Shown piece by piece: positions 1 to 29,636 of a stretch of DNA of 32,000 nt. The first letter of the stretch is position 1; each line of letters opens with the position of its first letter. The notes below the pieces were generated by a model. The model worked only from the letters and a program-made list of their open reading frames with translations, made no database searches and was not told the origin of the DNA. This stretch comes from Candidatus Saccharimonadota bacterium (lineage in GTDB: Bacteria; Patescibacteriota; Saccharimonadia; Saccharimonadales; Saccharimonadaceae). Position numbers and translations under genes: made by a program. Location of the stretch: contig CP060232.1 in NCBI GenBank assembly GCA_023898645.1, positions 210,001 to 242,000 on the forward strand, written 5' to 3'.

Positions 1-1
1 T

Positions 2-769
2 ATTGCACAGTGGATACGTTTTAGCAAACCGACATTCACTGTAGAGTCAGGGGAGTGGATGACCGAAAAAATCCATATTGCGTTACCCAAAAACACAGGA
101 TTCAGCTACTCATTCGTGTTGCTTATTCAAAGAGCGCAGGATACAACTGTCATAGAATCGGGCCGATTAATTAAAGGTTCGGTCGCGGTGTTTACTCTTA
201 TAAATGTAGATCGTCCTGGCGCTGTGCGTAGCCTGACGGTAGAGAAATTCGTGGCGTCGCAATCAATGTACGAATATTTGCCTGCCTCGCTAACAATGCA
301 GTTTAGGAATAACGGTAACACGATCATTCAACCGTTTGGCAATATTTTTATTCAACGAGGCAGCAATGATGCGTCGCCGATTGCAACCCTCCCAGTCAAT
401 AACCAAGCCGGATATATTTTGCCAGGGAGTAATCGAGTGCTAACGGCCCAATGGTCAGGCGGTTTTCCTTTATTTAAAGCAACAACCGCTTCCGATGGTA
501 GTCAAAAAACGAGCGAAGAGTGGGACTGGTCAAAATTGTCTCAATTTCGTATAGGTGCTTACACGGCAAAGCTAGTGGCAGTATACAACGATGGGTTGCG
601 CGACGTTGCTATTCAAAAAGAAACCTCATTTTGGGTGTTGCCATGGAAAATATTGTTAGGAGCGGTGGCCGTAATAGCAATTCTTTTATTGGGAGTGTGG
701 AGTATTATCCGCAGGATATTCAAACTATTTAGGCGACCCAAACGCAGCGAGCAAAAACCAGAAGAGTAA
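2..769 (+). CDS. Hypothetical cell-surface protein with C-terminal TM anchor; probably 5'-truncated by the window edge
   Basis: ORF track 59..769. The same frame stays open back to nt 2 (IAQWIRFSKPTFTVESGEW-M...), so the true start may lie upstream of the window. Beta-rich ectodomain, then hydrophobic helix ILLGAVAVIAILLLGVWSII and basic tail RRIFKLFRRPKR. Confidence 0.55.
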   Translation: MAQWIRFSKPTFTVESGEWMTEKIHIALPKNTGFSYSFVLLIQRAQDTTVIESGRLIKGSVAVFTLINVDRPGAVRSLTVEKFVASQSMYEYLPASLTMQFRNNGNTIIQPFGNIFIQRGSNDASPIATLPVNNQAGYILPGSNRVLTAQWSGGFPLFKATTASDGSQKTSEEWDWSKLSQFRIGAYTAKLVAVYNDGLRDVAIQKETSFWVLPWKILLGAVAVIAILLLGVWSIIRRIFKLFRRPKRSEQKPEE

Positions 770-772
770 CAT

Positions 773-800
773 TGTGATACCGCTAATGCTCTGCTATACT
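773..800 (+). promoter_or_regulatory. Putative sigma70-type promoter for the 825..1028 gene
   Basis: TTGTGA (773-778), 16-nt spacer, TGcTATACT extended -10 (792-800). AGGGGA Shine-Dalgarno at 811-816 precedes the GTG start at 825. Confidence 0.4.
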
Positions 801-824
801 AGTAAGCACTAGGGGATTAATGGT

Positions 825-1028
825 GTGAAAGAAACAAAAGAACTGACAAGTGAGCTGTTTGCAAAGGAAATGACCCGCAAGGAATTCGTGCAGCTTGCAG
901 GTATGGCAATCATCGCTTTGTTTGGCGTTAATAATTTTCTTTCGTTTCTTCTTAAGAGCGGTGGCAAGGCTATGCATTCCAATGCACAAGCCGGTCGTGG
1001 CTTTGGTTCGAGCAAATTCGGGGTATAA
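825..1028 (+). CDS. Small (67 aa) single-pass membrane protein, hypothetical
   Basis: GTG start 9 nt after an AGGGGA SD. Charged N-terminus, one hydrophobic helix (LAGMAIIALFGVNNFLSFLL), Gly-rich basic tail. Confidence 0.45.
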   Translation: MKETKELTSELFAKEMTRKEFVQLAGMAIIALFGVNNFLSFLLKSGGKAMHSNAQAGRGFGSSKFGV

Positions 1029-1043
1029 AACCGTAATTACACA

Positions 1044-1072
1044 TTGCTCTCACGCTTTCGCGAGGGTATACT
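1044..1072 (+). promoter_or_regulatory. Putative promoter feeding the leader of the giant gene
   Basis: TTGCTC (1044-1049), 17-nt spacer, TATACT (1067-1072). This implies a ~290-nt leader before the ATG at 1368. Confidence 0.35.
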
Positions 1073-1245
1073 AAACACAGACCTTCGAATAGGGGGTCAA
1101 TTCACGTATCAATAACTGAACAAAGGGGTTAATGAAACAGCGTACACCACTGTTTTACATTAAGCGTACCCGTACAGCTTCTCTGTGCACCCCTGTTCAA
1201 ACGATCTGGCCGATTGCAATCGGTCTTGCTCAGTTTGGCTACGGG

Positions 1246-1280
1246 TTAGGAGCTAGGAGTTGGGAGTTAGGAGTTAGTGG
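1246..1280 (+). repeat. Five tandem heptamers with Shine-Dalgarno-like cores (TTAGGAG CTAGGAG TTGGGAG TTAGGAG TTAGTGG)
   Basis: Read directly from the sequence. Lies ~90-120 nt upstream of the giant-gene start codon. Confidence 0.8.
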
Positions 1281-1367
1281 GGTCATCTCTTGGCTCGTTG
1301 CTATTATTTACCAAATCCCAATCACTATTTCCCATCTCCCAATTGACCTCCAAAGGAGGGCACCGTA

Positions 1368-4300
1368 ATGCCTACTCCGCAACGCCTCCCCATAGTCAAC
1401 TCCGACGACGGTGTTTGGGGTGATATTCTTCGCCAATACCTTGCGAAGGAGCACTTCAACGACGATACCGACAATGCCATCAACGGCGGTCACCAAAAAA
1501 TCACCATCCAGCCGGGCACCGCAGCGGCAGGTACCGCTCCGCTCAAGTTCACCAGCGGTACCCTGCTCACCACTCCCGAAGCCGGAGCCATGGAGTTTGC
1601 CGGCGATAACTACTACCTTACGGACACGTCTGGCCCGACTCGCCGCAAGATTGCCGCCTACGACGACACCTCTGGTGCCACCGGCGATATCTACTACCGC
1701 AATTCGTCTGGCTACTTCACACGACTCGGCATTGGTTCTACTGGCAACGTTCTTACTGTTGCCGGAGGTATCCCATCGTGGTCTTCTTCTATTAGCAACA
1801 CGAGTACCATCACTCTCAAAGACACAAACTTCACCCTGCAAGATGACGGCGATACCACAAAGCAGCTCAAGTTTGAACTCACTGGCATCGCTACTGGCAC
1901 TACTCGAACGTGGTCATTCCCCAACGCCGACTCGGCCTTTGTTGGTACCAATACGGCGCAGACGCTGACAAATAAGACGATCCAGGCCCCGACAATCACC
2001 GATTCCAACGGTGCGACGGTTCTTAACACGAGCGGGTCAGCTAGCGCAGTCAATTACATCACTCTGTCGAACTCAGCTACCACTTCTTCTGTCGGTATTT
2101 CGGCGACAGGTTCTGATACGAATTTGTCGCTGTCAGTTTATACAAAAGGAACTGGCGCAGTTATTCTACGTTCCGCACAGAATGGGATAGCTTTCCAAGC
2201 CGCCTCGCCTAGTGCATCGTCGGTGAACTACATTCAAGCACTGGGTGCTGTCTCTGGTTCTTCCCCAACGTTTCAGGCAGTAGGGTCTGATACAAATATT
2301 AACCTCGTCATGTCCACTAAGGGCACAGGGGTTGTTTTATTGTACACAGGCAGCAATATCGCCTTTAGGGCATGGGCACCAACTTCGTCCGTAAACTATA
2401 TTCAGGCGAACGGTTCCACTACTGGTGTGGTGCCGTCGTTGACTGCTGGTGGCACAGATACGAATGTTGGTATTAATCTTATTCCAAAGGGAACAGGTAC
2501 AGTTCAGGCCAATGGTGTTGATGTTGTCACGACGACTGACACACAAACCCTCACGAACAAAACCCTCACCAGCCCGAAGGTTAATACGGTTTACGATACC
2601 AACGGTAATACGGTGTTGAATTTTACTGCCAACGCGAGCGCAGTCAACTACGTTAATATTGCCAATAGGGCGACGACCGCAGGTCCAATAATTAAATCTG
2701 CAGGGTCAGATACAAATATCGACTTGATTCTATCGTCAAAGGGCACAAGCTTTATCTACCTGACCCCTGGTGGCAGTAACGCTCTATTGCTTAATACTGC
2801 AGCTAGTGCGGTGAACTACGTTCAAATTGTCGGCCAGTCTACGGGTAATGGTCCGCAGATTTTGGCTATGGGCGCAGATACCAATATTCACCTAACCCTT
2901 TCCGCCAAAGGAACTGGTGTAGTCAAGGCCAATGGTATCGAAGTTGCCACCATCACAGGTACGCAAACACTGACAAATAAAACCCTTACCACGCCAATAA
3001 TTGATCAAATAAAAGACACAACTACGTCGAATGTTGTGGCTGAATTTACTAGTGAAGCAAGCGCGGTAAACTATTTGCGATTGCGAAGCAGGGCAATTGG
3101 TGTTGCACCAAGCATTGTTGCTGTCGGAGCAGAATCAAATATCGGTATCACTTTCACGCCTCAGGGCAACGGCGCTGTTTCGATCTATGCAGCCACAGGG
3201 CAAACTCCTACGCTTCAAGCTACGGGCGTCGATACGAATCATGACTTGAAACTCCTCGCCAAGGGTTCGGGTACGGTGCGCATGGGAAGTAGCGTAACAG
3301 TACCAAACGGCAATTTAACGACGTTGTATAACACTGCCGATGAAACAACAAATTATGAGAAGGTAAGTATACGCTACAATTCCAATGTCGCCGAAATCGG
3401 TGGCTATGTGGCTGGTACGGGTGTACATCGTGATCTTCGTATTGGTATTAATAACTCTACGTACAATCCAACAAATCTTTATAGTTATGCGCAATTTTCA
3501 GTAAGCAGTACGCGTATAGCTCTGCGTTGGGAAACTTCGGCTAGCGGTCTCAAGATGGTTAGCGTAGGCGGAGGTACCGACTCTCTTGCCTCCGCAAGCA
3601 CCATTCAAAATGTCTTGGCCATTGAGCCTACTGTTAATCAGTCTGGCACGGCTGGATATACAGGGCTCCTCATAAACCCTACCGAAACAGCCACAGGTTC
3701 CGGAACCAAACTCCTCATCGACGCACAGGTCGGTGGCGTATCGAAGTTCTCGGTAGACAATACTGGTGTGGTCACTATGGCAGCTGTCGGCACAGGCGCT
3801 GGGTCGGTGGTGACTGTCGACGGCACGCAGACTCTCACCAACAAAACGCTCACCAGCCCTAAAATAGGTACGTTGTACGATAACAATGGTGCTATATGGC
3901 TTAGTGTTACGCCGACTGCTTCAGCTGTAAATTACGTAAGTGTTATCAACGCAGCAACAGGAGGACAGCCATATGTGACGGCTGTTGGTGCTGATACAAA
4001 TATTAGTCTTTCACTACGCCCAAAGGGTACAGGAAGCACTATTATACGAAGTGGCATCGATAGTGCCTCTGTCGCTATTTTTACAGGCGTGACATCAGGA
4101 GTAAATAGAATCGACTTCACTGGTGCGGCAACTGGTAATGGTGTTTCAATAGCCGCTAACGGTTCAGATACCAATGTTGACTTACTGCTCACTGGTAAGG
4201 GAACTGGTGCAGTCAAAGCAAACGGAGTTGAGGTAGCGACAATCAGCGGAACGCAAACTCTCACGAACAAGACGATATCTGGCGCATCGAACACTCTATC

Positions 4301-6917
4301 GAACATCGCCCAATCATCAGTCACGAGCCTGACGACAGACCTCGCCAACAGAGCCCAGATTACCGCCTATAACTCTGCAAATGAATTGAAAACAGTGACA
4401 CTCAACACCAACCCCGAGAGCGCTTGGTATACGTTTGAGCCGAATTATACTTCGGATCTCACATACAACTTGTTCCGCGGCGGTGCGGTAGACGTACAAA
4501 AGAACGGCTCTCCATTCAATACCTATGGTGCTGGCACTGGATTTTATAACGTATCTGGTGTTGGTTTGGCAGCAGATGACTGGTTTAAAGCAGATACATC
4601 GTTTTGTTTAGATAATCCGACTATTGCAACCGACACGTACGTTATTACCGTTGATATAGCTCCGTCTATCTTGCAGCGATATGGCTGCTACATGGGCATT
4701 GTGTTCCCTCACGGCTGGGGCACAAAGGATGTGCAAATAGAAGTATACAAGAGTGGCTGGTCAACACTTTATACTGTAACCGACAACTCTGACCCGGTGC
4801 ATCGTGTCTACTTTGGCGGTGACAGTACAACCTACACAAAGATACGCTACACCCTGGGGCGCCCATGGGGGGCACAGGTACGTATTAGTTCGCTATTTTC
4901 ATATGCTTACAACAGTACTGGTCGAGGCGAAGGCTATCTTACTCGTGGTGGTGGTGCTATTTACGGCAGCAACTCAACACCTATCGCATTTACTGCTACC
5001 GGTAGTGATACGAATATTAGCATCAATATCGTGCCAAAGGGAACGGGAACACTCAACCAGAACGGTGTTGCTGTCGCGACAATCAGCGGAACGCAAACGC
5101 TCACGAATAAGACTCTCACAAGCCCGAAGATTGGTGAGATTTACGGAAGTAATAATGGAACTACCGTTGCCCAATTTAAAGATGACACGACTGTAGCGAA
5201 TTACATAACGATAAAAAGCTATGCAACAGGTGGAACCCCAGCTATCCAGCTTGGCGCTAGCGCTGATACAAACGTCGGTCTAACTATAGTTCCAAAAGGG
5301 TCCGGAAAAGTTTCAATTTATTCCACGACGGGTCAAACACCGACACTTCAAGGTACAGGTGCTGACGCCAATCACAATTTGAACCTAACTTCCAAAGGCA
5401 CTGGCACTGTCCAGGCTAATGGCAACCCTGTCATCGCATCCGTTACTGCCATTCCTGCTGTTACCGGTACACCGTCAAGCAGCACTTTTCTTCGTGGAGA
5501 TGGTACTTGGTCCACGCCAACTGGCGGCAGTGGTGGCATGCTCGCTCCTTGTCAGGGTATGACAGTTGGTTCTGAGACATTTACTATTTCATCTGGCAGC
5601 GTCACACAAGTCTCTGGCACAACAATCAACGGCTACACGCCAGCCATTGGCGACCGTATTCTTATTATTAATGCTCCTGCCACGACCGGCGTCGGTTCGT
5701 CCTACGCTACGACATTCCAGCCAACCAACGGTATTTATGTGGTCACTGGAAATACCACAAACCTGACCGTCACTCGTGCGAGCGACATGTCTGGATCGAA
5801 CAAGCCAAATGGCATGAGTGTCCATGTGCAAAACGCCACGTGGCCAGGAGCGTGGACACTCTTCTTCGTTGAATATCCGAATGACGCCTCTGCATTCACC
5901 TGGGGAACGACTGGTATTTCATTCAAATATTCCGGTGGCATAGGTGGTCAGATGCAGCAAGTTTGGCTAGCAAATAACGGCCTTGGCTTTAACGTATGGA
6001 ACGGTACGGGCTGGACAAAATTCAGCGCTGCAACGAACGCTGGTACGCAAACGCTGACGCTACCGGCAACGGCCACATCTGACACGCTTGTCGGTCAGGC
6101 ATCGACAGACACATTGACGAATAAGACTTTGACATCTCCCAAGATTAATCAGGTTAATGATACGAATGGCAATACTTCGATTAATTTGACTGCTACTTCG
6201 AGTGCAGTAAATTACGTTAATATCACGAATACCGCTACTGGCAGCGGGCCGTCTGTCGCAGTAGCGGGTAGTGATACCAATATCGACTTGAACCTCGATA
6301 CAAAGGGTAGTGGCTCTGTGTATGCCAATGGCGATATTGTCATGACATCCCAGTCGCTGTACCCGCTTTTCATGGATTCTGGCCGGTTTGAACCGTTTCC
6401 GCAAATCTTGTGTCACAACAATTGGGCATTAAATTCAGGCGATATGCCTATGACGCTCTTTACTCCGACTGCAAACATGACCGTCAGCAATATTCTTTCT
6501 ATGACAGCTGGAGGCACCTCTTCGCAGTCAGGAGCGACTGCCTGTAAAGTCGCTATTTTCCGGGTGGATGATCTTGGTGTGTGGCCGGCCGATATGACAT
6601 GTATTGCTCGCTCAGCAAATAAGGCAGATAGGTGGAATGGTGCTCTGCTCGATACCGCTCCGATTGTCGACGACGGTGCAGCGTCGCCGAATTCTATATC
6701 ATCGGTAAACCTTACTGCCGGTCAGATGTACGCAGTTGGATTTATGTCGGTTGGTCATACGGGGAGCATACAACTCGCTGCTATGGGGGTTTATCGCCCG
6801 TGGACTCTTGAGCCGCACATTGGTTACTTTGGTGATGGTAGCTATTCGGATATTCCGGTAAATCTCACGGGTGGCTGGATAGAAGAGTGGACTTATGTGT
6901 GGTTTGGTCTGACGTAA
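1368..6917 (+). CDS. Giant (1849 aa) modular repeat protein, phage tail-fibre-like putative adhesin
   Basis: Strong SD (AGGAGGG, 7-nt spacing). No N-terminal signal peptide. 13 modules of G-[SA]-D-T-N-x-x-L-x-L-x-x-K-G-[TS]-G preceded by [AS]-V-N-Y. 7 linkers (A/T)(Q/D)TLTNKT at 1956, 2541, 2961, 3825, 4251, 5091 and 6105. FLRGDGTW at 5487-5510 and GDRILI...NGIYVV...RASD, which I recall as typical of tail-fibre proteins. Confidence 0.9.
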   Translation: MPTPQRLPIVNSDDGVWGDILRQYLAKEHFNDDTDNAINGGHQKITIQPGTAAAGTAPLKFTSGTLLTTPEAGAMEFAGDNYYLTDTSGPTRRKIAAYDDTSGATGDIYYRNSSGYFTRLGIGSTGNVLTVAGGIPSWSSSISNTSTITLKDTNFTLQDDGDTTKQLKFELTGIATGTTRTWSFPNADSAFVGTNTAQTLTNKTIQAPTITDSNGATVLNTSGSASAVNYITLSNSATTSSVGISATGSDTNLSLSVYTKGTGAVILRSAQNGIAFQAASPSASSVNYIQALGAVSGSSPTFQAVGSDTNINLVMSTKGTGVVLLYTGSNIAFRAWAPTSSVNYIQANGSTTGVVPSLTAGGTDTNVGINLIPKGTGTVQANGVDVVTTTDTQTLTNKTLTSPKVNTVYDTNGNTVLNFTANASAVNYVNIANRATTAGPIIKSAGSDTNIDLILSSKGTSFIYLTPGGSNALLLNTAASAVNYVQIVGQSTGNGPQILAMGADTNIHLTLSAKGTGVVKANGIEVATITGTQTLTNKTLTTPIIDQIKDTTTSNVVAEFTSEASAVNYLRLRSRAIGVAPSIVAVGAESNIGITFTPQGNGAVSIYAATGQTPTLQATGVDTNHDLKLLAKGSGTVRMGSSVTVPNGNLTTLYNTADETTNYEKVSIRYNSNVAEIGGYVAGTGVHRDLRIGINNSTYNPTNLYSYAQFSVSSTRIALRWETSASGLKMVSVGGGTDSLASASTIQNVLAIEPTVNQSGTAGYTGLLINPTETATGSGTKLLIDAQVGGVSKFSVDNTGVVTMAAVGTGAGSVVTVDGTQTLTNKTLTSPKIGTLYDNNGAIWLSVTPTASAVNYVSVINAATGGQPYVTAVGADTNISLSLRPKGTGSTIIRSGIDSASVAIFTGVTSGVNRIDFTGAATGNGVSIAANGSDTNVDLLLTGKGTGAVKANGVEVATISGTQTLTNKTISGASNTLSNIAQSSVTSLTTDLANRAQITAYNSANELKTVTLNTNPESAWYTFEPNYTSDLTYNLFRGGAVDVQKNGSPFNTYGAGTGFYNVSGVGLAADDWFKADTSFCLDNPTIATDTYVITVDIAPSILQRYGCYMGIVFPHGWGTKDVQIEVYKSGWSTLYTVTDNSDPVHRVYFGGDSTTYTKIRYTLGRPWGAQVRISSLFSYAYNSTGRGEGYLTRGGGAIYGSNSTPIAFTATGSDTNISINIVPKGTGTLNQNGVAVATISGTQTLTNKTLTSPKIGEIYGSNNGTTVAQFKDDTTVANYITIKSYATGGTPAIQLGASADTNVGLTIVPKGSGKVSIYSTTGQTPTLQGTGADANHNLNLTSKGTGTVQANGNPVIASVTAIPAVTGTPSSSTFLRGDGTWSTPTGGSGGMLAPCQGMTVGSETFTISSGSVTQVSGTTINGYTPAIGDRILIINAPATTGVGSSYATTFQPTNGIYVVTGNTTNLTVTRASDMSGSNKPNGMSVHVQNATWPGAWTLFFVEYPNDASAFTWGTTGISFKYSGGIGGQMQQVWLANNGLGFNVWNGTGWTKFSAATNAGTQTLTLPATATSDTLVGQASTDTLTNKTLTSPKINQVNDTNGNTSINLTATSSAVNYVNITNTATGSGPSVAVAGSDTNIDLNLDTKGSGSVYANGDIVMTSQSLYPLFMDSGRFEPFPQILCHNNWALNSGDMPMTLFTPTANMTVSNILSMTAGGTSSQSGATACKVAIFRVDDLGVWPADMTCIARSANKADRWNGALLDTAPIVDDGAASPNSISSVNLTAGQMYAVGFMSVGHTGSIQLAAMGVYRPWTLEPHIGYFGDGSYSDIPVNLTGGWIEEWTYVWFGLT

Positions 6918-6958
6918 AATAATCGTTTTTCATTATTCTCAATTTCACTCAATAATAA

Positions 6959-6985
6959 TTAGCACTCTTGACATCCGAGTGCTAA
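6959..6985 (+). promoter_or_regulatory. CIRCE operator (HrcA binding site) upstream of dnaK
   Basis: TTAGCACTC-TTGACATCC-GAGTGCTAA, a perfect match to the CIRCE consensus TTAGCACTC-N9-GAGTGCTAA. A T6 run follows. Confidence 0.93.
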
Positions 6986-6996
6986 TTTTTTACACT
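6968..6996 (+). promoter_or_regulatory. dnaK promoter P1, with -35 inside the CIRCE spacer
   Basis: TTGACA (6968-6973), 17-nt spacer, TACACT (6991-6996). Confidence 0.55.
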
Positions 6997-7003
6997 CAAA
7001 GTA

Positions 7004-7033
7004 TTGGCAATCTACATGGTAGAGTGCTAGAAT
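7004..7033 (+). promoter_or_regulatory. dnaK promoter P2
   Basis: TTGGCA (7004-7009), 18-nt spacer, TGcTAGAAT extended -10 (7025-7033). Overlaps a CIRCE half-site GAGTGCTAG (7022-7030). Confidence 0.5.
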
Positions 7034-7081
7034 AGAATAAGAATAACAGTACAAAATATCTTAAGGGAAAGGGTATATATT

Positions 7082-8998
<1,917 letters not shown>

Positions 8999-11972: not shown

Positions 11973-12833
11973 TTAAAGAGCGACTATACGTTTATGGGCA
12001 GACTCCCACGGTGATTGTTTTGCTTCACCATCCGAGCGATAAAACATGGATTTAACCACGGCGCAAATACCAAGCAAAACGATATAGCCAAGTGAGGTTG
12101 GTATGAGCAACGCATAAAAAATTCTTTGACGAAATGAGAGGTGAGGGTAGTGTGTGATTGCAGCAACCATCCATAGCCAGAAGCAACTCAGACAGCCAAT
12201 GAGTAAAATTGGTTGGTAAAGAAAAAGAGCGAGAAAACAAGCGTATATCTGCGCAACGATGCACGCTACGAAAGCAAACCATCGAGTGATTGCGTACGTT
12301 TTCGTTCGCATGTTTTTATGATAACTTGGCCGTATTAGAATTGGGTTGAGCGGATGAGTGAGTGCAATGCCAAACCCGGCACGCGATGAAGCAAAAGGGG
12401 CGGCAGCAATGAGGCGATATGCGTGAAGCAACTGTCCGAAAGTATCTGGAAACTGGAGAACCGGCGATAGTTCAACGACGACGAGCGACCGGTCTTTTTC
12501 GAGCCGGTGAACTGCGTAATTTATCGCCGATTTTTCTAGAACGTAGTCAGACTTTAGTCTCAGTATGAGCTTGCCATTGATCGGTTGACTGAGTGGTTTT
12601 ATTTCAATTTTTCGATAATCGTTGTTCCATATACTTTCCATGCATTTGTTGGACGGCGTACCGTCGACATAGATCGATACGAGGGGGAGTTTTTTGAAAC
12701 GAATGCGCGGGCGGCTGCGTAATTGCGATTCAAGTCTTATTTTGCGAATGTCGTGAATTGTCATGCCTAGCAATGTCGCTCCGGTAACAAGAGCGAGTAT
12801 AAAACCGATGATAGTTATGACGATAAGCTCCAT
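11973..12833 (-). CDS. Polytopic membrane protein with a degenerate GT2-like cytoplasmic domain
   Basis: I prefer the Met at 12833 (MELIVITIIG...) because it gives a TAATG stop/start overlap with the sortase gene. One N-terminal TM, a ~170-aa soluble domain (LPLVSIYV...SIWNNDYRKIEI resembles a GT2 N-terminus but lacks DxD and QxxRW), and four Cys-rich C-terminal TMs. Confidence 0.6.
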   Translation of the reverse strand: MELIVITIIGFILALVTGATLLGMTIHDIRKIRLESQLRSRPRIRFKKLPLVSIYVDGTPSNKCMESIWNNDYRKIEIKPLSQPINGKLILRLKSDYVLEKSAINYAVHRLEKDRSLVVVELSPVLQFPDTFGQLLHAYRLIAAAPFASSRAGFGIALTHPLNPILIRPSYHKNMRTKTYAITRWFAFVACIVAQIYACFLALFLYQPILLIGCLSCFWLWMVAAITHYPHLSFRQRIFYALLIPTSLGYIVLLGICAVVKSMFYRSDGEAKQSPWESAHKRIVAL

Positions 12834-13435
12834 TACTGCACCTTTTGGAATGAAAAAATAAATTCTGTTCGCCACTCACTGAACGCGCCGGTGCACGTTT
12901 GTACAATGAGCCGCGGTGGACCAGACGCGACGTTACTTAATATGGAAGTATCGGTCGGATTTAAGTTGTGAACTGACTGCAGTACGTAAGTAAACACGTG
13001 TTTATTGTCTGTATGAATTTCGGCGACGCTACCTATTGGCGGATGGTTGGTGCCAATTCTTCCAAGTACCGGGTAGGTTCCGTGGCCGTATATAAATGTA
13101 GCGCCCCCTTGGTCGTTTGCCGGCATGGTTGATGTCGCGAATTCAGCATGAGTCGGGCTGAGCGTCCAAGTTTTGGAAGCCTCGTCATACCTGCCCTCGT
13201 CGATTTGTAAATCGATATTTCTTGCTGGTATGACGAGACGGATAGGCTCACCAGAAATTGTGTCTGGTACCACAATGACTGGTTTAGCTGGTTTTCGATA
13301 TGTTGGACTCGGTTTACTTATAGCCCATACTGGCGTACCAAATGTATGTGACGAGTACAGGACTATAGCAATCACTCCTATGGTTAAAAGATAGACGGAG
13401 GCTATGCTGCTATATAAATTGATTTTTTGCAGCAT
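12833..13435 (-). CDS. Sortase-family transpeptidase
   Basis: 200 aa. N-terminal TM anchor, LVIPARNIDLQI, catalytic His in FIYGHG, catalytic Cys in LIVQTCTG, downstream Arg. Confidence 0.8.
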   Translation of the reverse strand: MLQKINLYSSIASVYLLTIGVIAIVLYSSHTFGTPVWAISKPSPTYRKPAKPVIVVPDTISGEPIRLVIPARNIDLQIDEGRYDEASKTWTLSPTHAEFATSTMPANDQGGATFIYGHGTYPVLGRIGTNHPPIGSVAEIHTDNKHVFTYVLQSVHNLNPTDTSILSNVASGPPRLIVQTCTGAFSEWRTEFIFSFQKVQ

Positions 13436-13448
13436 GCTTCCGCTCCTC

Positions 13449-13979
13449 TTATTTCAATTTATAGTGACGAAACGCGATGATGCCTAGGCGCGTAGCAACG
13501 TAGGCTCCCGCGGCGGTCACTATGCCAGTAACTGCAATACTGAGTGGTGTATCGTTGGCTGTATATGGGAGTACTGATGGGGTAGTAGAGCCTGCGCCAC
13601 TAGGATTTTCAGGTGCGCTAGGTGTAGGTGTGGACGCTACACCTACGCCACCACCTCCATCGGCACCGTTACAGCTAGTACCGATGGTGACATTTTGGCC
13701 GTTGTCATTGACAACTGTACCTGTAGCCACGTTGCCACCTGTAGTATTGCCGCTCACGTCACCGCTGCCGCTAGACCCAGTCTGGTTGTTGACCGTACCT
13801 ACCCATAAATTGTTGTTACAGGTCACGTTGATGTTATTTACATCATTACAACTTACTGTGTTGTTTGAGTCAGGGCCGGTTAATGTGACTATACCGTCAC
13901 ACGTTGCCGCACTGGCAAAACTACCCATACATGCAGCACTTACTACTGCTGACGTTGCTATGTGGATGACCTTGTTCAT
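13449..13979 (-). CDS. Secreted Asn/Gly-rich single-repeat protein with LPYTA sorting signal (putative sortase substrate)
   Basis: 176 aa. AGGAGA SD, signal peptide, TGPDSNN...SGDVSGNTTGGNVATG repeat core, Pro/Ser linker. C-terminus is LPYTA (13557-13571), then a hydrophobic helix and an RHYKLK tail. Confidence 0.8.
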   Translation of the reverse strand: MNKVIHIATSAVVSAACMGSFASAATCDGIVTLTGPDSNNTVSCNDVNNINVTCNNNLWVGTVNNQTGSSGSGDVSGNTTGGNVATGTVVNDNGQNVTIGTSCNGADGGGGVGVASTPTPSAPENPSGAGSTTPSVLPYTANDTPLSIAVTGIVTAAGAYVATRLGIIAFRHYKLK

Positions 13980-14204: not shown

Positions 14205-14705
14205 ATGAGAGGTTATTTTGTGTCAGTCGTCAGGTTTTTAACCAAGTCGGTTCCGTATATTCCTAATTCTAGAAGGTTCATCTCGCGGCACCGCGCCTTT
14301 GTATTTATCATGGCTGCGACGCTACTAGTAGTTACAACTACGGCACTGCTTACTACAAAACACTTTGTGACTTCGAATACGTCGAGTGCTGCAAATGATA
14401 GCCAGCTTTCTCCAGGCTCGAGTACATCTAGTAGTACACCTGGTGTACATGCGTCTCAGCAGATCACTAATATAGTTTCACCGTCAGGAGGTTCCATGAG
14501 TACGAATATTCAGGTAAATGGCAAGCAGATCAAAGTCCCAGAAAATGGGTCGATGCACAAGACTATTTATTCCGACGATGGAAGTAAGACTGATATTAAT
14601 GTGTCAACAAGCGGAAACGCGACTAATTCGAATATTTATACGTCGTCATCGAATGTACAGGTAACAACTAATCCGGAGGACTTGCAAGCGGGGTCGGGTA
14701 ATTAG
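14205..14705 (+). CDS. N-terminally membrane-anchored Ser/Thr-rich protein, hypothetical
   Basis: 166 aa. TM FVFIMAATLLVVTTTALLTT, then an S/T/N-rich ectodomain. The start is uncertain, with a GTG at 14220 as an alternative. Confidence 0.55.
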   Translation: MRGYFVSVVRFLTKSVPYIPNSRRFISRHRAFVFIMAATLLVVTTTALLTTKHFVTSNTSSAANDSQLSPGSSTSSSTPGVHASQQITNIVSPSGGSMSTNIQVNGKQIKVPENGSMHKTIYSDDGSKTDINVSTSGNATNSNIYTSSSNVQVTTNPEDLQAGSGN

Positions 14706-14718
14706 GTGAGTGGTCAGT

Positions 14719-14753
14719 CGATTCCGACAGCAGGCTGTCTGCAGTCGGAATCG
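14719..14753 (+). promoter_or_regulatory. Strong intercistronic RNA hairpin upstream of the 14803 gene
   Basis: CGATTCCGAC (14719-14728) pairs perfectly with GTCGGAATCG (14744-14753), and 4 inner base pairs extend the stem. No T-run follows. Confidence 0.65.
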
Positions 14754-14802
14754 GGCGAACACCCGAAGTCAAAATCCATTAATAACAATAAGGAGGGACA
14801 AA

Positions 14803-15393
14803 ATGAAAATAGCAAGGTCAGCAGGTGCGGTAGTGACGTCGCTCGGTCTAGTGGTGGGACTTTCCGGGTTCGCCGGTGCGACTGCAGGAACGATCGGCTA
14901 CACAGGCCCATCGTCAAATAACCAAATATCTTCGTATTTAAACAACAATGCGAATTTAAACAACAACAACAATTTAAACGCGAACAACCTGAATAATCAG
15001 AACGCGCATTCCGGTTTTGCAAACGTTTCTGGTAATACGTTTGGCGGTACGGCTCAGACCGGACCAGCAAGCAACTTCAATAGTTCGAACGTTTCTGCAA
15101 ATGTCAGCAATGCTGGTGCAGGTTATGGCGGCTGGTTCGCTGGTGCCGCTGCGGCAAACAGCGTGGCCAATATCAATACGACTGGCCCTTACTCGAACAA
15201 TCAGGTTCAGTTCAGCACGAACAACAACCTGAATGTAAATAACAATAATAACTTCAATATCACAAACACGAATAACCAGAATGCTCAGTCTGGTAGCGCA
15301 AGCGTGGACTGCAACACGACTGGTGGTTCTGCCATCACTGGCGCAGCAACCAATACGAACACACAAACAGTTAACCTGAGCGTTAACAACTAG
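14803..15393 (+). CDS. Secreted Asn-rich two-repeat protein (candidate free fibre subunit)
   Basis: I prefer ATG 14803 (AAGGAGGG SD at 14790-14797) over the track start at 14710. Signal peptide MKIARSAGAVVTSLGLVVGLSGFAGA. Two ~73-aa repeats (14893-15114 and 15172-15390), each TGP-x-SNNQ...NNNNN...NNQNA-x-SG-x-A-x-V-x-x-NT-x-GG-x-A-x-TG. No C-terminal anchor. Confidence 0.8.
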   Translation: MKIARSAGAVVTSLGLVVGLSGFAGATAGTIGYTGPSSNNQISSYLNNNANLNNNNNLNANNLNNQNAHSGFANVSGNTFGGTAQTGPASNFNSSNVSANVSNAGAGYGGWFAGAAAANSVANINTTGPYSNNQVQFSTNNNLNVNNNNNFNITNTNNQNAQSGSASVDCNTTGGSAITGAATNTNTQTVNLSVNN

Positions 15394-15483: not shown

Positions 15484-17328
15484 GTGCAACGAGCTAGACA
15501 CATTATAAGGGGAGTAGTCATTTACCTGTTCGTGGTGATATTTGCGGGTGGCGCCCCTCTATCTACTATCGTTAGTGCTGACACTGCTCAAAACAAGAAG
15601 CACAACTATACATATAATACAGCCGATAAACACTGGAGTGATGAGGACTGGACGTGGAACAAGGCGACAGGCAAATACGTAAAGAACACGTCTGTATCAC
15701 CGAGCCCTTCTGATTCACCCGCTCCTACAAGCGACACGACGCCACCTGACACTACCGCGAAATCTTCGGACCCAGCTCCAGCGGGCGATGCTACTGTTAC
15801 TGACAGCACCAACGCGGCGGCAACGACAAACGACAACAATAATGTGGGCGTGACGAACAATCTGAACTCAAATACCGGTAGCGGTGATGCGGGTGTCGTC
15901 AAAAATACGACCGCCGGTGATGCGCAGACAGGTGACGCAAACGGTAGTACGACAATCATTAATAGCGTTCACTCGACGGTTGGTAACGGCGATACTTCTG
16001 GAATCGCGCACTTTACGATGAACCTTTATGGCGACATCACTGGCGACATTAGCATTGGTCCGAACATCAATAATGCAACGATTGATAAAAATACAAATCT
16101 TTCAAGCAAGACGAATGTTAACAACAACGACACACTTGTGAACAATCAGACGCTTAAGTCTACTAGCGGTAATGCGACGGTCAGCGGCAACACGACTGCC
16201 GGCAGTGCGAAGTCTGGCAATGCCAACACTGTCGCCGATGTGATGAACCTGATCGACACGATTATTGCAGCCAACAAATCATTCATTGGCACGGTTAACA
16301 TATACGGCAATTTAAACGGTGATATATTGGTCTCTCCTGACTTCATACCACAATTACTGGCAAGCAATGCTCAGGTGTATGGCAATTACAACCTAGACCA
16401 GACGGCAAACATTAATGACAACCAGTCGATAGTTAATAACGTCAAGTTAAACGCGACGAGTGGCACGGCTACGGTTAGTGGCAATACGACTGCCGGTACG
16501 GCAAAAAGCGGCAATGCTCAGACGAATCTAACAATTTTGAACTTGACCGGTCATCAGGTTGATGCCAAGAAAAGCCTACTTGTTTTCGTGAACGTGCTTG
16601 GTAAATGGGTAGGCATGATCGTCGACGCACCGGGTGCAACATCTGCGGCTCTCGGTAGCGGAGTAATCAGTGACACTACGAATATAAGTGACACCGCTAA
16701 TCTAAATAACAACGCGAAGATTATCAATAACCTTGATCTGTCATCAGCATCTGGCGATGCGACTGTGACGAAAAATACGACAGCTGGTGACGCCGTGACA
16801 GGCAATGCTACAGCTAGCGCTAACATTGCCAACATCAGCACGAGTCAGTTTAACCTGAGCGACTGGTTCGGCGTACTGTTTATCAATGTGTACGGTACGT
16901 GGATCGGTAGCTTCGGCATAAACACAGCGGCGGGCACCATCACGCCACTCAGCGGTGACGCTGTTCCGTCGGCTGGAGCCAGAATCGCTGCATTGCCAAC
17001 GGCCGGCCAACTGATGCATTTCGGATATACGCCGGCCACGCAAAGCCACGCGACAGTAGCGGGAGTAAGTGGTTCTGGCAGTAAGCCGACTGGCGGCAAG
17101 CCATTCACTCAGCTGAGCGGCCTACGTGCTCCATCTGAACAATTGAGGTTAATCCCAGTTGCACCAAAGCCTTTCGAAGATGTATTTTCAAACATCTTGA
17201 TGACTATCGGCTTCGGCGCCGCCGGCATATCAGGTGCACTTTGGCTCATTCGAAAGCGCCGGCCAACGTTGCCGACTAGGGCGCCGCACGGAGGAGGCTT
17301 GACCGAGGCAGTAAGCTCGCGAACATAA
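15484..17328 (+). CDS. Large (614 aa) four-module Asn/Gly/Thr-rich repeat protein with N-terminal signal/anchor and C-terminal TM
   Basis: GTG start after an AAGGAGGGG SD. Hydrophobic N-terminus, Pro/Ser/Thr linker, four ~97-aa modules (15829-16932) each containing SG-x-A-x-V-x-x-NTTAG-x-A-x-(T/S)G. C-terminal helix ILMTIGFGAAGISGALWLI followed by RKRR. Confidence 0.85.
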   Translation: MQRARHIIRGVVIYLFVVIFAGGAPLSTIVSADTAQNKKHNYTYNTADKHWSDEDWTWNKATGKYVKNTSVSPSPSDSPAPTSDTTPPDTTAKSSDPAPAGDATVTDSTNAAATTNDNNNVGVTNNLNSNTGSGDAGVVKNTTAGDAQTGDANGSTTIINSVHSTVGNGDTSGIAHFTMNLYGDITGDISIGPNINNATIDKNTNLSSKTNVNNNDTLVNNQTLKSTSGNATVSGNTTAGSAKSGNANTVADVMNLIDTIIAANKSFIGTVNIYGNLNGDILVSPDFIPQLLASNAQVYGNYNLDQTANINDNQSIVNNVKLNATSGTATVSGNTTAGTAKSGNAQTNLTILNLTGHQVDAKKSLLVFVNVLGKWVGMIVDAPGATSAALGSGVISDTTNISDTANLNNNAKIINNLDLSSASGDATVTKNTTAGDAVTGNATASANIANISTSQFNLSDWFGVLFINVYGTWIGSFGINTAAGTITPLSGDAVPSAGARIAALPTAGQLMHFGYTPATQSHATVAGVSGSGSKPTGGKPFTQLSGLRAPSEQLRLIPVAPKPFEDVFSNILMTIGFGAAGISGALWLIRKRRPTLPTRAPHGGGLTEAVSSRT

Positions 17329-17351: not shown

Positions 17352-17378
17352 CTAGCACTCTTGACTCCGGAGTGCTAG
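17352..17378 (+). promoter_or_regulatory. CIRCE operator upstream of dnaJ
   Basis: CTAGCACTC-TTGACTCCG-GAGTGCTAG, a 9-N9-9 perfect inverted repeat that differs from the consensus only at the outermost base of each arm. Confidence 0.9.
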
Positions 17379-19032: not shown

Positions 19033-21702
19033 ATGTGGGATTCTATCCGATTGTCCACGGTCGGCGGTTTTACTTTACGCAAGATTGCCCTGCTGTTAAT
19101 GGCCGTATTGACGTCGGCCGTGTTCATGGCAGCCACGAATAGTCCCACTTCTTTTGCGGTAAACGCTAGCTGGAATGGCGATTCAATTAGCTATAACGGC
19201 AATACTTACGACAAGGTACAATCGCCGCCAACACTGCCTGGTGTTCCAATAAATTGGAATGTTTATTCTACGCAACCAACAGGTGGGCAGGATGTGTCAA
19301 TCATTGCGATTGATCCTAGCGCAGACACGACCAAAGACGTTTCCAACGCTAAGTCATTTACATACAGTTATGATGGTCAGATATACAGTAATCCGCGTCC
19401 GCCAAATGGAGACATGATTACCGTTAGTGCCAATACAAGTGGCGCCAATGGTGATGCAAGCTCTAGTAACAGCCAGAATCACACATCCTGCGCCGTGACT
19501 GGTGTAGGCTGGATTATTTGTAGCGTATCTCGATGGATTGCCGATGGCATGGATCATGTCTTCAATCTCATCAGTGGTTTTTTGACTGTCCGACCACTAA
19601 CTACAGATACAAATAGTGGCATGTATCAGGCGTGGACGATTGCTCGCAATCTGGCTAACACATCATTTATCGTGGCGTTTTTAGTGATTATTTATGCTCA
19701 GATATCTACGTATGGCATAAGTAATTACGAGCTTAAAAAGATGATTCCGCGCCTTATCATAGCCGCGATTTTAGTCAACGTGTCATATTACATTTGTACG
19801 GTAGCCGTAGACGTGTCGAATATTTTAGGCGACAGCGTACAGCAAGCATTGGTGCAAATTCGTCAATCATTACCGGCAGCGATGCCTGGTGGCAGTGTAT
19901 TGAACTGGAAGAGCATGACAGAGTTCCTGCTGAGCGGTGGTACGGTGGTGGGCGCCGGACTTGCCGGATTTGCTGCGTTTACTGGCGCAACCGTAGCTGG
20001 GTCTATGACGGGCTTGGTTATCTTGCTGTTTCCTATCTTGATTGCAGGCATCTTGAGTGTGCTCGTGGCGCTCATCGTATTGGCCGCACGACAGGCGCTG
20101 ATTACTGTGCTCGTTATTATTTCGCCACTAGCTTTTGTCGCCTTTTTGCTCCCTAACACTGAGAAGTTTTTTGAACGTTGGCGTAAATTGCTCACTACTT
20201 TGTTGTTGGTATTTCCGATGTTTTCGTTGTTGTACGGCGGTTCACAATTAGCGTCGTATATTGTCATTCAAAACACCGACCAAATCAGCGTTATGTTGTT
20301 AGCGATGTTTATACAAGTTGCACCGTTGGCGCTCACGCCGTTTTTGATACGCTTTAGCGGATCGCTCATGGGGCAGTTGGCAGGCATGCTCAACAAGCCA
20401 AGGAGCACACTGGTTGGACAGGCAAAGAACTTTGCGCAAGACCGCTCCAAGACTCAGGCTGCAAAGGGCCGAATTGCAGCTGCAAACGGCGGCGGTACGT
20501 ATTTCCAGCAACGTGCCCTCAGGCGATTTAATGATCAAAAAGATCGTGATGCATGGCAAAAGAGCGGCGAAGCGTATGCTGATGCCTCGTGGCACAACGA
20601 CAAGCGCTACCGTCGTCACCACACGATATCATCGACAGCGAATCTCATGAAAGAGAGTGGCGAGGCGATTGCTACTCGCGAGTTTGAACATGAGAAGGCG
20701 CACGATAGGCGACTACAGAAGTTTTCGGGAGTTAAGCGTTTGGAAGATTCTCGCGTTAAGCAATTGCAGGCTGCCGACAATGCTCGCTGGGAAGAAGCCG
20801 TTACTGGCAAAGTGAATCCGAACGATGCTTCTCAGCCATATGCAGCTTACTCTCAAGCAGCGCATACGGTATTTAGAGAACAGCGTATTGCCGACAGTAA
20901 CGCCGCCCGAGCACAGGCCGTACAGCAGCGTGAGTACGCTAACGAACTAACTTCAAACGTTGCATTGCAGCAATTAGCCGGCGGCAGTATAGACAAACTT
21001 GGTGCAGTTAAGGTCAAGGCGCAAGCAATGAGTGAAGTAATTCAAGCCAGTCAGCAAAATGTCGAGTCCATCAAAACCGCGTCTCATGTGAAAGCTGGTG
21101 ACATCAATGAAATGCGTAAAGAATTCGACAAGGCGGTTAGAAGGCAGGACGTCGACTCGCTACGTGCCTACGCCGACATGCTGGGTAATTCCAAGGATCC
21201 GGGTATTAGAGAGTTACGTAAAGCGCTTAATGATCATCATGCCGATATCAAATCATCAGATATGCACGAGACATTTATGCACTTCCTTAGCAATAACGGA
21301 AATATTAATAACTCCGCCAAGGATATCGGCGATTATAGCCGTGACGTTGCAGCGGGCTACCGCAAACTGAGCGAAGTCAGTTCTAGCGCGAAGACGTGGA
21401 AAAACATGGATGCCAATCAGTTTGCCGCCCAGAAGGCATCTTCACAGGTGGAGGCGCTTAAAGCGAGGGACGACAATGGTAACTGGGCAATTTCGCGCAG
21501 TACGGCTGTCGACCTGATGAAGTCTGTATCTTGGGAAAACATTAAGACAGACATGAAGCCGTTGATACGGGCGCGTGCCGAGGGGCGCTTGGCCGTTAAT
21601 GTTCGTACGGGTGATCTTGATCCGCGTAGAATGGAACAGCGAGACGACACCATGAATCCGCCAGATCAACAAATTCCAGACTCTATGGTGCCACCAGAGT
21701 AG
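19033..21702 (+). CDS. Large polytopic membrane protein, VirB6/TrbL/TcpH-like (putative type IV secretion channel component)
   Basis: 889 aa. Signal-like N-terminus, ~150-aa extracytoplasmic domain with a Cys pair (SCAVTGVGWIICS), ~7 TM helices (approx 19645-20370), and a ~440-aa charged helical C-terminal domain. The call rests on architecture only. Confidence 0.4.
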   Translation: MWDSIRLSTVGGFTLRKIALLLMAVLTSAVFMAATNSPTSFAVNASWNGDSISYNGNTYDKVQSPPTLPGVPINWNVYSTQPTGGQDVSIIAIDPSADTTKDVSNAKSFTYSYDGQIYSNPRPPNGDMITVSANTSGANGDASSSNSQNHTSCAVTGVGWIICSVSRWIADGMDHVFNLISGFLTVRPLTTDTNSGMYQAWTIARNLANTSFIVAFLVIIYAQISTYGISNYELKKMIPRLIIAAILVNVSYYICTVAVDVSNILGDSVQQALVQIRQSLPAAMPGGSVLNWKSMTEFLLSGGTVVGAGLAGFAAFTGATVAGSMTGLVILLFPILIAGILSVLVALIVLAARQALITVLVIISPLAFVAFLLPNTEKFFERWRKLLTTLLLVFPMFSLLYGGSQLASYIVIQNTDQISVMLLAMFIQVAPLALTPFLIRFSGSLMGQLAGMLNKPRSTLVGQAKNFAQDRSKTQAAKGRIAAANGGGTYFQQRALRRFNDQKDRDAWQKSGEAYADASWHNDKRYRRHHTISSTANLMKESGEAIATREFEHEKAHDRRLQKFSGVKRLEDSRVKQLQAADNARWEEAVTGKVNPNDASQPYAAYSQAAHTVFREQRIADSNAARAQAVQQREYANELTSNVALQQLAGGSIDKLGAVKVKAQAMSEVIQASQQNVESIKTASHVKAGDINEMRKEFDKAVRRQDVDSLRAYADMLGNSKDPGIRELRKALNDHHADIKSSDMHETFMHFLSNNGNINNSAKDIGDYSRDVAAGYRKLSEVSSSAKTWKNMDANQFAAQKASSQVEALKARDDNGNWAISRSTAVDLMKSVSWENIKTDMKPLIRARAEGRLAVNVRTGDLDPRRMEQRDDTMNPPDQQIPDSMVPPE

Positions 21703-26356: not shown

Positions 26357-26433
26357 TGGAGGGTCCAGTGAGGCTTGAACTCACGACACCCTGCTTAAAA
26401 GGCAGGTGCTCTAACCAGCTGAGCTATGGACCC
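26357..26433 (-). tRNA. tRNA-Lys (anticodon UUU), CCA encoded
   Basis: The reverse complement folds by hand into a cloverleaf. Acceptor GGGTCCA/TGGACCC, D-arm GCTC/GAGC, anticodon stem CCTGC/GCAGG with loop CTTTTAA, T-arm GTGAG-TTCAAGC-CTCAC, discriminator T, CCA. 77 nt. Confidence 0.95.
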
Positions 26434-27321: not shown

Positions 27322-27358
27322 AGTTATAGTATGACACATCTTAAGGTATCCTTGAAAC

Positions 27359-28816: not shown

Positions 28817-28876
28817 GTGGAATTTTGCGACAGTATAGTTTATAATATCTATCAAATCTAATCTTGGGAATTATGT

Positions 28877-29599: not shown

Positions 29600-29607
29600 G
29601 CTTATAG

Positions 29608-29636
29608 TTTACACTCAGTTTAATACTCTGTATATT
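29608..29636 (+). promoter_or_regulatory. Putative promoter for the 29647 gene
   Basis: TTTACA, 17-nt spacer, TATATT. The ATG is 10 nt downstream. Confidence 0.5.

Follow-up and report, generated by a model that had tools for sequence, protein, structure and literature searches.

To our knowledge, the recognition and holding of hosts by bacteria of the Candidate Phyla Radiation (CPR) has so far been linked only to type IV pili and to the newly described Pam pili. The Pam pilus operon encodes donor-strand-exchange pilins together with the FimC/PapD-like chaperones PamC and PamD, which carry a C-terminal transmembrane (TM) helix; a ‘tail fibre-like protein’ has been mentioned in a single sentence as consistently co-localised with the operon across CPR lineages (Troman et al., bioRxiv 10.64898/2026.03.03.709456). 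Phage-borrowed fibre-type adhesins are already known in a bacterial predator, Bdellovibrio bacteriovorus, whose MAT fibres combine an invariant N-terminal domain, proposed to lie at the cell surface, with swappable C-terminal tips (PMC10769870). Here we describe a gene for an 1849-amino-acid (aa) fibre-like protein, hereafter the fibre protein, of a Candidatus Saccharimonadota bacterium (family Saccharimonadaceae; GenBank assembly GCA_023898645.1). The gene lies within a 32,000-nucleotide (nt) stretch of contig CP060232.1 (positions 210,001–242,000, forward strand), the whole of which is referred to as the window and supplies the coordinates used throughout unless another locus is named. In the literature searched, nothing tying Saccharibacteria to tail fibres or minor tail proteins was found beyond the one sentence of the Pam preprint, in which a gene of this kind was noticed once in the CPR; the family and its size, its architecture, the invariant pairing with a small gene whose product resembles a protein associated with the twin-arginine translocation (Tat) system, the sharing of modules with actinophages and the apparent exchange of modules between lineages were not found in that literature.

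On balance, we favour the reading that the gene encodes a long, probably trimeric fibre at the surface of the saccharibacterium, which binds the host cell and is exported by a route other than Sec. The protein resembles both the receptor-binding fibres of phages and the MAT fibres, yet it belongs to neither group: its gene lies outside any virion module, and the signal peptide and N-terminal domain of MAT fibres are both lacking. The closest named counterpart is the ‘tail fibre-like protein’ of the pam neighbourhood, as yet uncharacterised. The likeness to MAT fibres, compared here by description and not by sequence, lies in a bacterium living on bacteria and in a phage-tail-fibre-like repertoire with a conserved base and mosaic tips, some of which end in Peptidase_S74. 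In MAT fibres a signal peptide precedes a conserved ∼130-aa domain; the present family is without a signal peptide and has a different, CPR-specific N-terminal domain; the shaft module also differs, and the organism is a monoderm CPR epibiont.

The fibre gene is one uninterrupted open reading frame (ORF), with an AAGGAGG ribosome-binding site (RBS) followed 8 nt later by the ATG. The start is considered real because this ATG is the earliest start codon past the upstream stop and because M1, R6, L7 and P8 of the protein are invariant across 31 aligned homologues. A second ORF (1132–1368), located in the leader ahead of the gene, is probably non-coding since the counterpart in the nearest genome shows no conservation over the second half. 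An earlier note on this DNA, prepared from the letters alone, had described a frame of 1849 codons with 13 repeats, three inserts and a distinct C-terminal domain, all of which were found again at the same positions (Table 1). Eight obvious copies of the ∼45-aa module within the protein were used to train a hidden Markov model (HMM), which detected 13 copies with independent E-values of 1e-10 to 1e-25, far beyond chance; 10 are full (starting at aa 224, 282, 338, 422, 478, 563, 850, 908, 1274 and 1610) and three are partial (aa 608, 1198 and 1319). The seven linkers reported earlier also exist as LTNKT sites (aa 200, 395, 535, 823, 965, 1245 and 1583), but the longer TQTLTNKTL(T/S)SPK form ascribed to all of them was too generous, as the exact form T[QD]TLTNKTLTSPK occurs in only four. 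Non-repeat stretches occupy aa 643–815, 970–1200, 1353–1578 and 1656–1849. The protein has a repetitive structure with a high content of T, G, S, A and N. The GC content of its gene resembles that of the neighbours. A Pfam scan of the whole 1849-aa protein returned no family, and a PDB sequence search with the whole protein returned noise only.

A signal peptide or hydrophobic N-terminus was found neither in the fibre protein, in agreement with what had been noted before, nor in any of its 120 best homologues. Neither an RR motif nor a hydrophobic region is present in the N-terminus (MPTPQRLPIVNSDDG), and the 19-residue Kyte-Doolittle mean over the first 60 aa reaches a maximum of 0.07, compared with 1.6–3.2 for the secreted neighbours. 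The C-terminus (...EEWTYVWFGLT) likewise has no LPXTG motif or TM segment, despite the presence of a sortase gene in the window, and with no LPXTG the reading of the protein as a sortase substrate was ruled out.

Rather than the single domesticated fibre envisaged at first, the fibre protein is an expanded, mosaic member of a common CPR family. A profile of its N-terminal domain matched at least 1312 proteins, each named one of which comes from Saccharimonadales or other CPR bacteria, and the N-terminal 215 aa are 57–85% identical across 32 long homologues. The protein is regarded as expanded because most members are only ∼236 aa long, this commonest form consisting of the N-terminal domain and a C-terminal domain of ∼90 aa. 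Of 120 long homologues, 108 carry the 45-aa module, with a median of 7 and at most 25 copies, and the positions of inserts and the copy numbers vary among family members. Other members contain or end in Peptidase_S74, collagen, C1q, YadA-head, pectate-lyase-like or GDSL-lipase domains, and a match to PF13385, which we take to be LamG, was also found in the family. Peptidase_S74, collagen, C1q and YadA-head domains form trimers, and because family members are fused to such obligately trimeric modules, the scaffold of the fibre is by analogy probably trimeric as well. An AlphaFold2 monomer model of aa 1–335 was poor, with a predicted local distance difference test (pLDDT) score of 63.5 and long stretches without secondary structure; this is consistent with a trimer but is no proof of one. 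A Foldseek search with the same model gave a best E-value of 1.4 and, given the low confidence of the input model, was uninformative.

Phage counterparts were found for residues 90–222, insert 2 and the C-terminal domain, which supports the earlier assignment of the protein to phage tail-fibre or minor-tail modules. Residues 1 to ∼90 (RLPxVxxDDGxWGxIxRQYLxKEH...) are essentially CPR-specific. Within them, the first ∼30 residues, through a short motif at residues 6–35, resemble the N-terminus of a Gly-rich protein encoded near tail-fibre ORFs on one viral contig, and the profile of the N-terminal domain gave nothing significant among PDB sequences. Residues 90–222 carry the motifs GATGDIYYR..G..TRL..G..G.VLT...G.P.W and then FTLQDD.DTTKQ...TLTNKT. 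This segment matched phrog_13925 (3e-10) and phrog_692 (virion structural protein; 7e-8) and, by tblastn, tail fibre proteins of Stenotrophomonas, Rhodobacter, Synechococcus and Rhodococcus phages. When viral contigs were scanned, the fibre protein by itself found no relatives, and the profile found two short-motif matches only (viral contigs L008 and L009); on an IMG/VR contig with head genes, the final ORF contains two occurrences of the motif GATGDIYYRN...LT...G.P.W.

When the whole fibre protein was run by tblastn against 50,697 phage records, insert 2 was matched by 41 of them (37 Gordonia and 4 Mycobacterium phages), all over aa 844–1210. Mycobacterium phage Myrna gp112, whose gene is located in the tail block past the tape measure gene, contains two copies of insert 2 (pairwise E-values 3e-31 and 4e-19) with a TLxNKT linker before each. 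Matches to phrog_33513 (1e-17) and phrog_13892 (minor tail protein; 5e-11) were also obtained. Judged from these alignments, insert 2 is a true homologue of the domain repeated in actinophage minor tail proteins.

The C-terminal domain is present in none of the 120 best full-length homologues, so that a variable tip stands on a conserved N-terminus (57–85% identity, as given above), a point that the earlier note had proposed to examine. Among 1.84 billion representatives, 66 homologues of the domain were found, all of which place it at the C-terminus, and in their N-terminal parts there are matches to PHROGs of tail fibres, minor tail proteins, tailspikes and hyaluronidases. The alignment of these 66 homologues yielded an AlphaFold2 model of a beta-sandwich with a pLDDT of 94.1. 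Its best structural matches in the PDB, identified with Foldseek, included the cyanophage A4 capsid-associated protein (9jwb_Z; 1e-6), the mycobacteriophage Bxb1 tail tip (9d93_Pa; 4e-6, TM-score 0.64), the central fibre gp20 of mycobacteriophage Douge (1e-5, TM-score 0.65) and the phi812 baseplate. The BFVD database gave 69 matches at E≤1e-3, mainly minor tail proteins of Mycobacterium, Gordonia and Streptomyces phages. The domain-wise modelling and structure search recommended at the outset thus identified the fold of the tip as that of a phage distal tail domain. In tblastn searches of isolated phages, neither the C-terminal domain nor insert 3 gave a match at E≤0.01.

Insert 1 is a shuffled module found in 1–4 copies in other family members; it had no PHROG match, and its family profile had no match in the PDB. 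Insert 3, which occurs in 29 of the 120 listed homologues and twice in some, carries FLRGDGTW, GDRILI and NGIYVVT and had no PHROG or PDB-profile match. Its FLRGDGTW and GDRILI/NGIY motifs are presumably phage-fibre-like; the sole counterpart derived with a tool is a short KFWRGDKTW in Myrna gp112 that resembles the insert 3 motif. Of the motifs put forward as typical of phage fibres, the LTNKT linker occurs as TLxNKT in Myrna gp112, and FLRGDGTW/GDRILI are backed by this one short segment. For the 45-aa module no phage or PDB counterpart was detected, and the 13-module shaft was not found in the isolated phages searched.

Compared with actinophage minor tail and tail fibre proteins, the fibre protein has in common the homologous insert 2 with its preceding linker, the beta-sandwich of the distal domain (TM-scores 0.6–0.69), the motifs GD(I/L)(Y/L)..G...RL..G..GQVL and F(L/W)RGD.TW, and a mosaic construction with conserved N-terminus and variable tips. 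It differs in that its gene belongs to a surface-filament cluster of the cell instead of a virion module, that its first ∼90 residues are CPR-specific with one short viral trace (the motif at residues 6–35), that its 13 VNY...DTN...KGTG modules were not found in isolated phages, and that at 1849 aa it is much longer.

The fibre gene is a fixed member of this chaperone/pilin (Pam-like) surface-filament cluster. Seven syntenic loci were compared, namely those of the window, of the wastewater metagenome-assembled genome (MAG) Candidatus Saccharibacteria bacterium HKST-UBA63 (L002), which is the closest genome to the window, of an 829-kb Saccharibacteria contig (L004), and L010, L011, L012 and L013. 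In all seven, one or two chaperone-like genes (∼330–395 aa) and a small gene (59–69 aa) are followed by a fibre-family gene, the product of which spans 233–2123 aa. In the copies examined (the window fragment, L002, L004 and L010), the chaperone-like proteins combine a signal peptide with beta-rich domains and a C-terminal TM helix, the fragment in the window being ∼50% identical to full-length 361–367-aa proteins with signal peptide and C-terminal TM helix in the other three loci. The fragment agrees with PamC/PamD as described in the preprint. Their family comprises 727 matches, often as adjacent pairs per genome, with weak Pfam similarity to fn3_5 and WxLIP_PGBD. Secreted pilin-like proteins of ∼350 aa ending in ...DYTDTITV[VI]GAGLF are encoded near the cluster in three of three loci checked (L002, L004 and L010); a phmmer search of the pilin-like neighbour against PDB sequences for PamA or PamB gave no match. 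The likeness to the ‘tail fibre-like protein’ of the pam neighbourhood is that the fibre gene directly follows pilin-like genes and genes for TM-anchored PapD/FimC-like chaperones. The preprint, in turn, contains a network mention only, without sequence, architecture or function, and dnaK, grpE and tatAC flank the cluster here as opposed to the reported ATP synthase and CorB genes.

The wider surroundings are cellular. Besides dnaK and dnaJ, the window contains genes for a GNAT acetyltransferase, a C26 peptidase, a sortase, RimK, an aspartate/ornithine carbamoyltransferase and several secreted repeat proteins. In L002 and L004, hrcA and grpE come first, then tatA and tatC, and after several genes for secreted proteins follow the fibre gene and dnaK. 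No phage structural (head, packaging, terminase, portal or tape-measure), integrase or lysis gene was recognised among the window ORFs scanned with Pfam, up to position 26120 (four ORFs at 26608–31844 were compared with the fibre only, outside the family-library scan), and no such gene was recognised in the 9.4-kb upstream stretch of the nearest genome or in the 9–10 kb flanks in relatives. Given these cellular neighbours and the synteny of the locus across divergent Saccharimonadales genomes, the fibre gene is not within a prophage, and a prophage reading of the locus was ruled out by synteny and gene content. The claim that the gene lies outside a prophage therefore held, but the picture of a gene without context did not, since it belongs to the Pam-like cluster; as to whether homologues elsewhere sit in prophages, the seven syntenic loci show the cellular cluster instead.

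Additional genes were observed beside fibre genes in two other CPR loci, L004 and L005. Three fibre-family genes stand in tandem in L005 (1–18763). In these loci (L004 15444–16315 and the L005 region), the long fibre genes are joined by genes for a short fibre-like protein of 164 aa, which has a TQTLTNKTL linker, and for a Gly-rich protein of 90 aa. A conserved Cys/His protein, 61% identical between the two loci, is encoded beside the long fibre genes at L004 16576–17223 and L005 9123–9521; its interpretation as a CHAP/NlpC-type cell-wall hydrolase received no support from Pfam or PDB sequence searches.

Comparison with HKST-UBA63 at the DNA level points to exchange of modules. Window positions 3320–3922, inside the fibre gene, are 99% identical to L002 10983–11585 (the insert 1 module), and positions 5061–7043 are 99% identical to positions 18–2000 of a second HKST-UBA63 contig (L001), the match extending 126 nt past the stop codon. 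The flanks on the same contigs are 72% identical upstream (window 1–1881) and 86% identical in dnaK, and the HKST-UBA63 orthologue differs in the middle architecture of the fibre gene. Because two separate contigs switch in the same sense, the pattern appears to favour recent recombination of distal fibre modules between lineages over the alternative of assembly chimeras.

The small proteins encoded ahead of the fibre gene share a [ST]R[KA]xF[LV] motif, a hydrophobic or TM helix and a C-terminal GFG[ST]xxFG, and a homologue is directly upstream of the fibre-family gene in all seven syntenic loci. The 67-aa protein of the window matched NCBIfam NF038009 (TatB_1; ‘twin-arginine translocation system-associated protein’) with an E-value of 8e-10 and 38.8 bits, under the 100-bit cut-off. 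Six fibre-adjacent copies were scored against this model, the L002 copy being left out; five gave E-values of 8e-10 to 8e-11, and the L010 copy gave 8e-4. A paralogue directly after tatC (L004 3199–3408) matched with an E-value of 1e-19. In the orthologous loci L002 and L004, which are outside this window, a few genes separate tatA and tatC from the fibre gene downstream of them. The Tat pathway exports folded proteins and carries signal-less partners of signal-bearing proteins, an example of such a hitchhiker being the large subunit of [NiFe] hydrogenase, which is carried by the small subunit. Based on the NF038009-like gene directly upstream, the nearby tatA/tatC in orthologous loci and the capacity of Tat to move folded proteins, Tat is in our view the most concrete candidate for a non-Sec route of the fibre. 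As with the hitchhikers, the fibre is signal-less, is presumed to be folded before export and is encoded beside a small Tat-signal-like protein, with tatA/tatC near in orthologous loci; the differences are an RK or RA motif in place of RR and a very long fibre as cargo, and the likeness serves as a working hypothesis only. Tat was rare among the Saccharibacteria genomes analysed in 2018 (PMC6031116). Of the earlier proposal of non-Sec export, the absence of a Sec signal holds family-wide and the NF038009-like gene upstream provides a candidate, while the route itself is one that we infer.

In the favoured reading of a host-binding surface fibre, the N-terminal domain (∼140–220 aa) would form the cell-proximal attachment end, and the 45-aa modules and LTNKT linkers would form the shaft, into which interchangeable globular modules and a distal tip are spliced. 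The fibre would fold and trimerise in the cytoplasm, like phage fibres. It would then be exported without a Sec signal, most plausibly by Tat with the aid of the small Tat-associated membrane protein encoded upstream, or else by some other non-Sec machine, and would remain tethered via its N-terminal domain. The distal modules would bind the host cell envelope, and recombination that swaps these modules would retarget the fibre. The only hosts known to us so far for cultivated Saccharibacteria are Actinobacteria. Ca. Mycosynbacter amalyticus, for instance, is a parasite of Gordonia and attaches to Gordonia (bioRxiv 10.64898/2026.03.03.709456; PMC11880426). A more specific scenario is doubtful as a whole and is put forward tentatively: a pre-folded, signal-less, phage-type trimeric fibre would leave through Tat, with the 59–69-aa TatB_1-like protein as signal in trans, adaptor and membrane tether; it would be the main determinant of host range beside the Pam-like pilus; and its receptor-binding modules would come from one gene pool with those of the phages of the host Actinobacteria and be recombined between epibiont lineages.

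With more than 1300 members, a place in a Pam-like cluster and interchangeable, actinophage-related tips, the fibre family is a concrete candidate for a determinant of specificity. If the favoured reading is true, the host range of uncultured Saccharibacteria would be predictable from fibre tips, as it is for phages, and epibionts and the phages of the same hosts would draw on one pool of modules. Export of a folded fibre free of a Sec signal, possibly by Tat with a small adaptor, would in that case be new cell biology.

Several observations weigh against this interpretation or parts of it. No phage counterpart was detected for inserts 1 and 3 or for the 45-aa module, and the tilt towards actinophages could partly reflect the composition of the databases. 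The fibre protein has no twin-arginine signal peptide of its own, all NF038009 matches fall under the curated cut-off (∼39 versus 100 bits for the small upstream proteins), and the motif is RK/RA and not RR. The tatA/tatC genes stand beside the cluster in only two loci with long flanks, none being found within 6–10 kb in the other four loci, and we know of no precedent for Tat export of so long a fibre. Lastly, the upstream cluster fits the Pam operon as matched to the published description, not to its sequence, and all Pam components have Sec signals, which the fibre does not, so that it is uncertain whether fibre and pilus are physically connected.

Other explanations account for parts of the same data. 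We regard it as unlikely that the protein serves for receptor binding on a phage-like or secretion-associated machine of non-viral nature, for example a type IV secretion system (T4SS) or the ‘lance-like appendage’ of M. amalyticus, and is assembled in the cytoplasm and exported by that machine and not by Tat. Next to the fibre gene, the loci examined contain neither a sheath, tube or baseplate gene nor a recognisable T4SS gene; the invariant neighbours are the chaperone-like and the Tat-associated-like small genes. Such a machine would nevertheless accommodate both the missing signal peptide and the phage-type attachment motifs at the N-terminus of the protein. A lance-like tube with a barbed tip has been seen by cryo-electron tomography in M. 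amalyticus (PMC11880426), and the T4SS of Saccharibacteria is essential and includes pilins (PMC10633639). The window itself encodes an 889-aa polytopic membrane protein (Table 1) that could be a membrane component of a secretion system, e.g. a VirB6/TrbL-like candidate.

It also seems improbable that the protein is a structural component of the envelope (fibrils, an S-layer-like coat or a pilus accessory) without specific host recognition. The repetitive T/G/S/A/N-rich composition, the membership in a filament cluster and the short length of the commonest members (∼236 aa) would all suit such a role. The hypervariable tip on a conserved base, the lectin-like or enzymatic tips of the family (C1q, pectate-lyase-like, GDSL lipase and, as we take PF13385 to be, LamG), the phage distal tail fold of the tip and the apparently recent exchange of distal modules are, however, hallmarks of ligand recognition.

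A decoy function, by which the epibiont would compete with actinophages for host receptors or shield its host, could by analogy follow from the modules shared with actinophages, and TM7x is reported, according to the title of the study, to alter the phage susceptibility of its host (PMC11032452); we consider this explanation very unlikely, and it would be compatible with, and secondary to, a host-binding role. Scarcely credible is a decaying tail-fibre gene from a cryptic prophage, or one recently transferred from phage to cell, without a cellular role: the many modules with phage counterparts would fit, as would the genes in L004 and L005, next to the long fibre genes, that resemble short fibres or Gly-rich minor tail proteins, but the 1849-codon frame is intact with a strong RBS, no head, terminase, portal, tape-measure, integrase or lysis gene was recognised in the Pfam-scanned ORFs or in the 9–10-kb flanks in relatives, all seven divergent loci place the fibre gene in the same position behind the chaperone-like and small genes, the family has at least 1312 members with a highly conserved N-terminus, and the GC content of the gene resembles that of its neighbours.

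Table 1. Features of the fibre gene, its surroundings in the window and the small genes of syntenic loci.
Feature	Position	Strand	Remarks
Fibre gene	1368..6917	+	one uninterrupted frame, 1849 aa
N-terminal family-defining domain, aa 1–223	1368..2036	+	profile, PHROG, tblastn
Shaft block 1, aa 224–642	2037..3293	+	7 ∼45-aa modules and 2 TQTLTNKT linkers
Insert 1, aa 643–815	3294..3812	+	
Linker and 2 shaft modules, aa 816–969	3813..4274	+	
Insert 2, aa 970–1200	4275..4967	+	
Linker and shaft modules, aa 1201–1352	4968..5423	+	partial module aa 1198–1233 straddles the insert 2 boundary
Insert 3, aa 1353–1578	5424..6101	+	
Last linker and last shaft module, aa 1579–1655	6102..6332	+	linker TDTLTNKTLTSPK
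C-terminal tip domain, aa 1656–1849, and stop codon	6333..6917	+	
Chaperone-like protein, C-terminal 255 aa	2..769	+	beta-rich, TM helix and basic tail at end; cut by the left edge of the window
67-aa membrane protein gene	825..1028	+	[ST]R[KA]xF[LV] motif, hydrophobic helix, C-terminal GFGSSKFGV
Leader between small gene and fibre gene, 339 nt	1029..1367	+	GGAGTT-type tandem repeat ∼1246–1275; RBS 1353–1359
Small gene, L002	8856–9056		
Small gene, L004	9516–9695		
Small gene, L010	9676–9885		
Small gene, L011	∼5640–5840		
Small gene, L012	5790–5996		
Small gene, L013	5561–5767		
CIRCE (HrcA operator)	6959–6985	+	perfect; before dnaK
CIRCE	7004–7030	+	3 mismatches; before dnaK
dnaK	7082–8998		promoter-like hexamers and two CIRCE in front
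Sortase	12833–13435	-	
Secreted N/T/S/G-rich protein	13449–13979	-	adjoins sortase; no Pfam match
Secreted N/T/S/G-rich protein	14205–14705	+	adjoins sortase; no Pfam match
Secreted N/T/S/G-rich protein	14710–15393	+	adjoins sortase; no Pfam match
Secreted N/T/S/G-rich protein	15484–17328	+	adjoins sortase; no Pfam match
CIRCE	17352–17378		2 mismatches; before dnaJ
889-aa protein	19033–21702	+	signal/anchor segment, polytopic membrane core, long charged C-terminal region; no Pfam match
tRNA-Lys (anticodon TTT)	26357–26433	-	sole RNA gene in the window (Rfam, ARAGORN)
565-aa secreted protein	29647–31344	+	C-terminal TM segment

Beyond the fibre gene, the classical hrcA-grpE-dnaK-dnaJ heat-shock operon was found to be split by inserted clusters of surface-protein genes, with the Pam-like cluster and the fibre gene between grpE and dnaK and ∼8 kb that include the sortase gene between dnaK and dnaJ. 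The CIRCE elements and promoter-like hexamers ahead of dnaK give it a regulated promoter of its own, which suggests that its transcription can be independent of the fibre gene. Repeats of the form SGNT(T/F)(A/G)G.A.(S/T)G are present in three of the secreted proteins next to the sortase gene (13449–13979, 14710–15393 and 15484–17328), two of which have a C-terminal TM segment. The 565-aa secreted protein near the right end of the window contains two similar ELYPNATGSDTGNEFIEVYNPT-like segments and, towards its C-terminus, Cys repeats of the form C..NQYRN.(D/E)TNRC.

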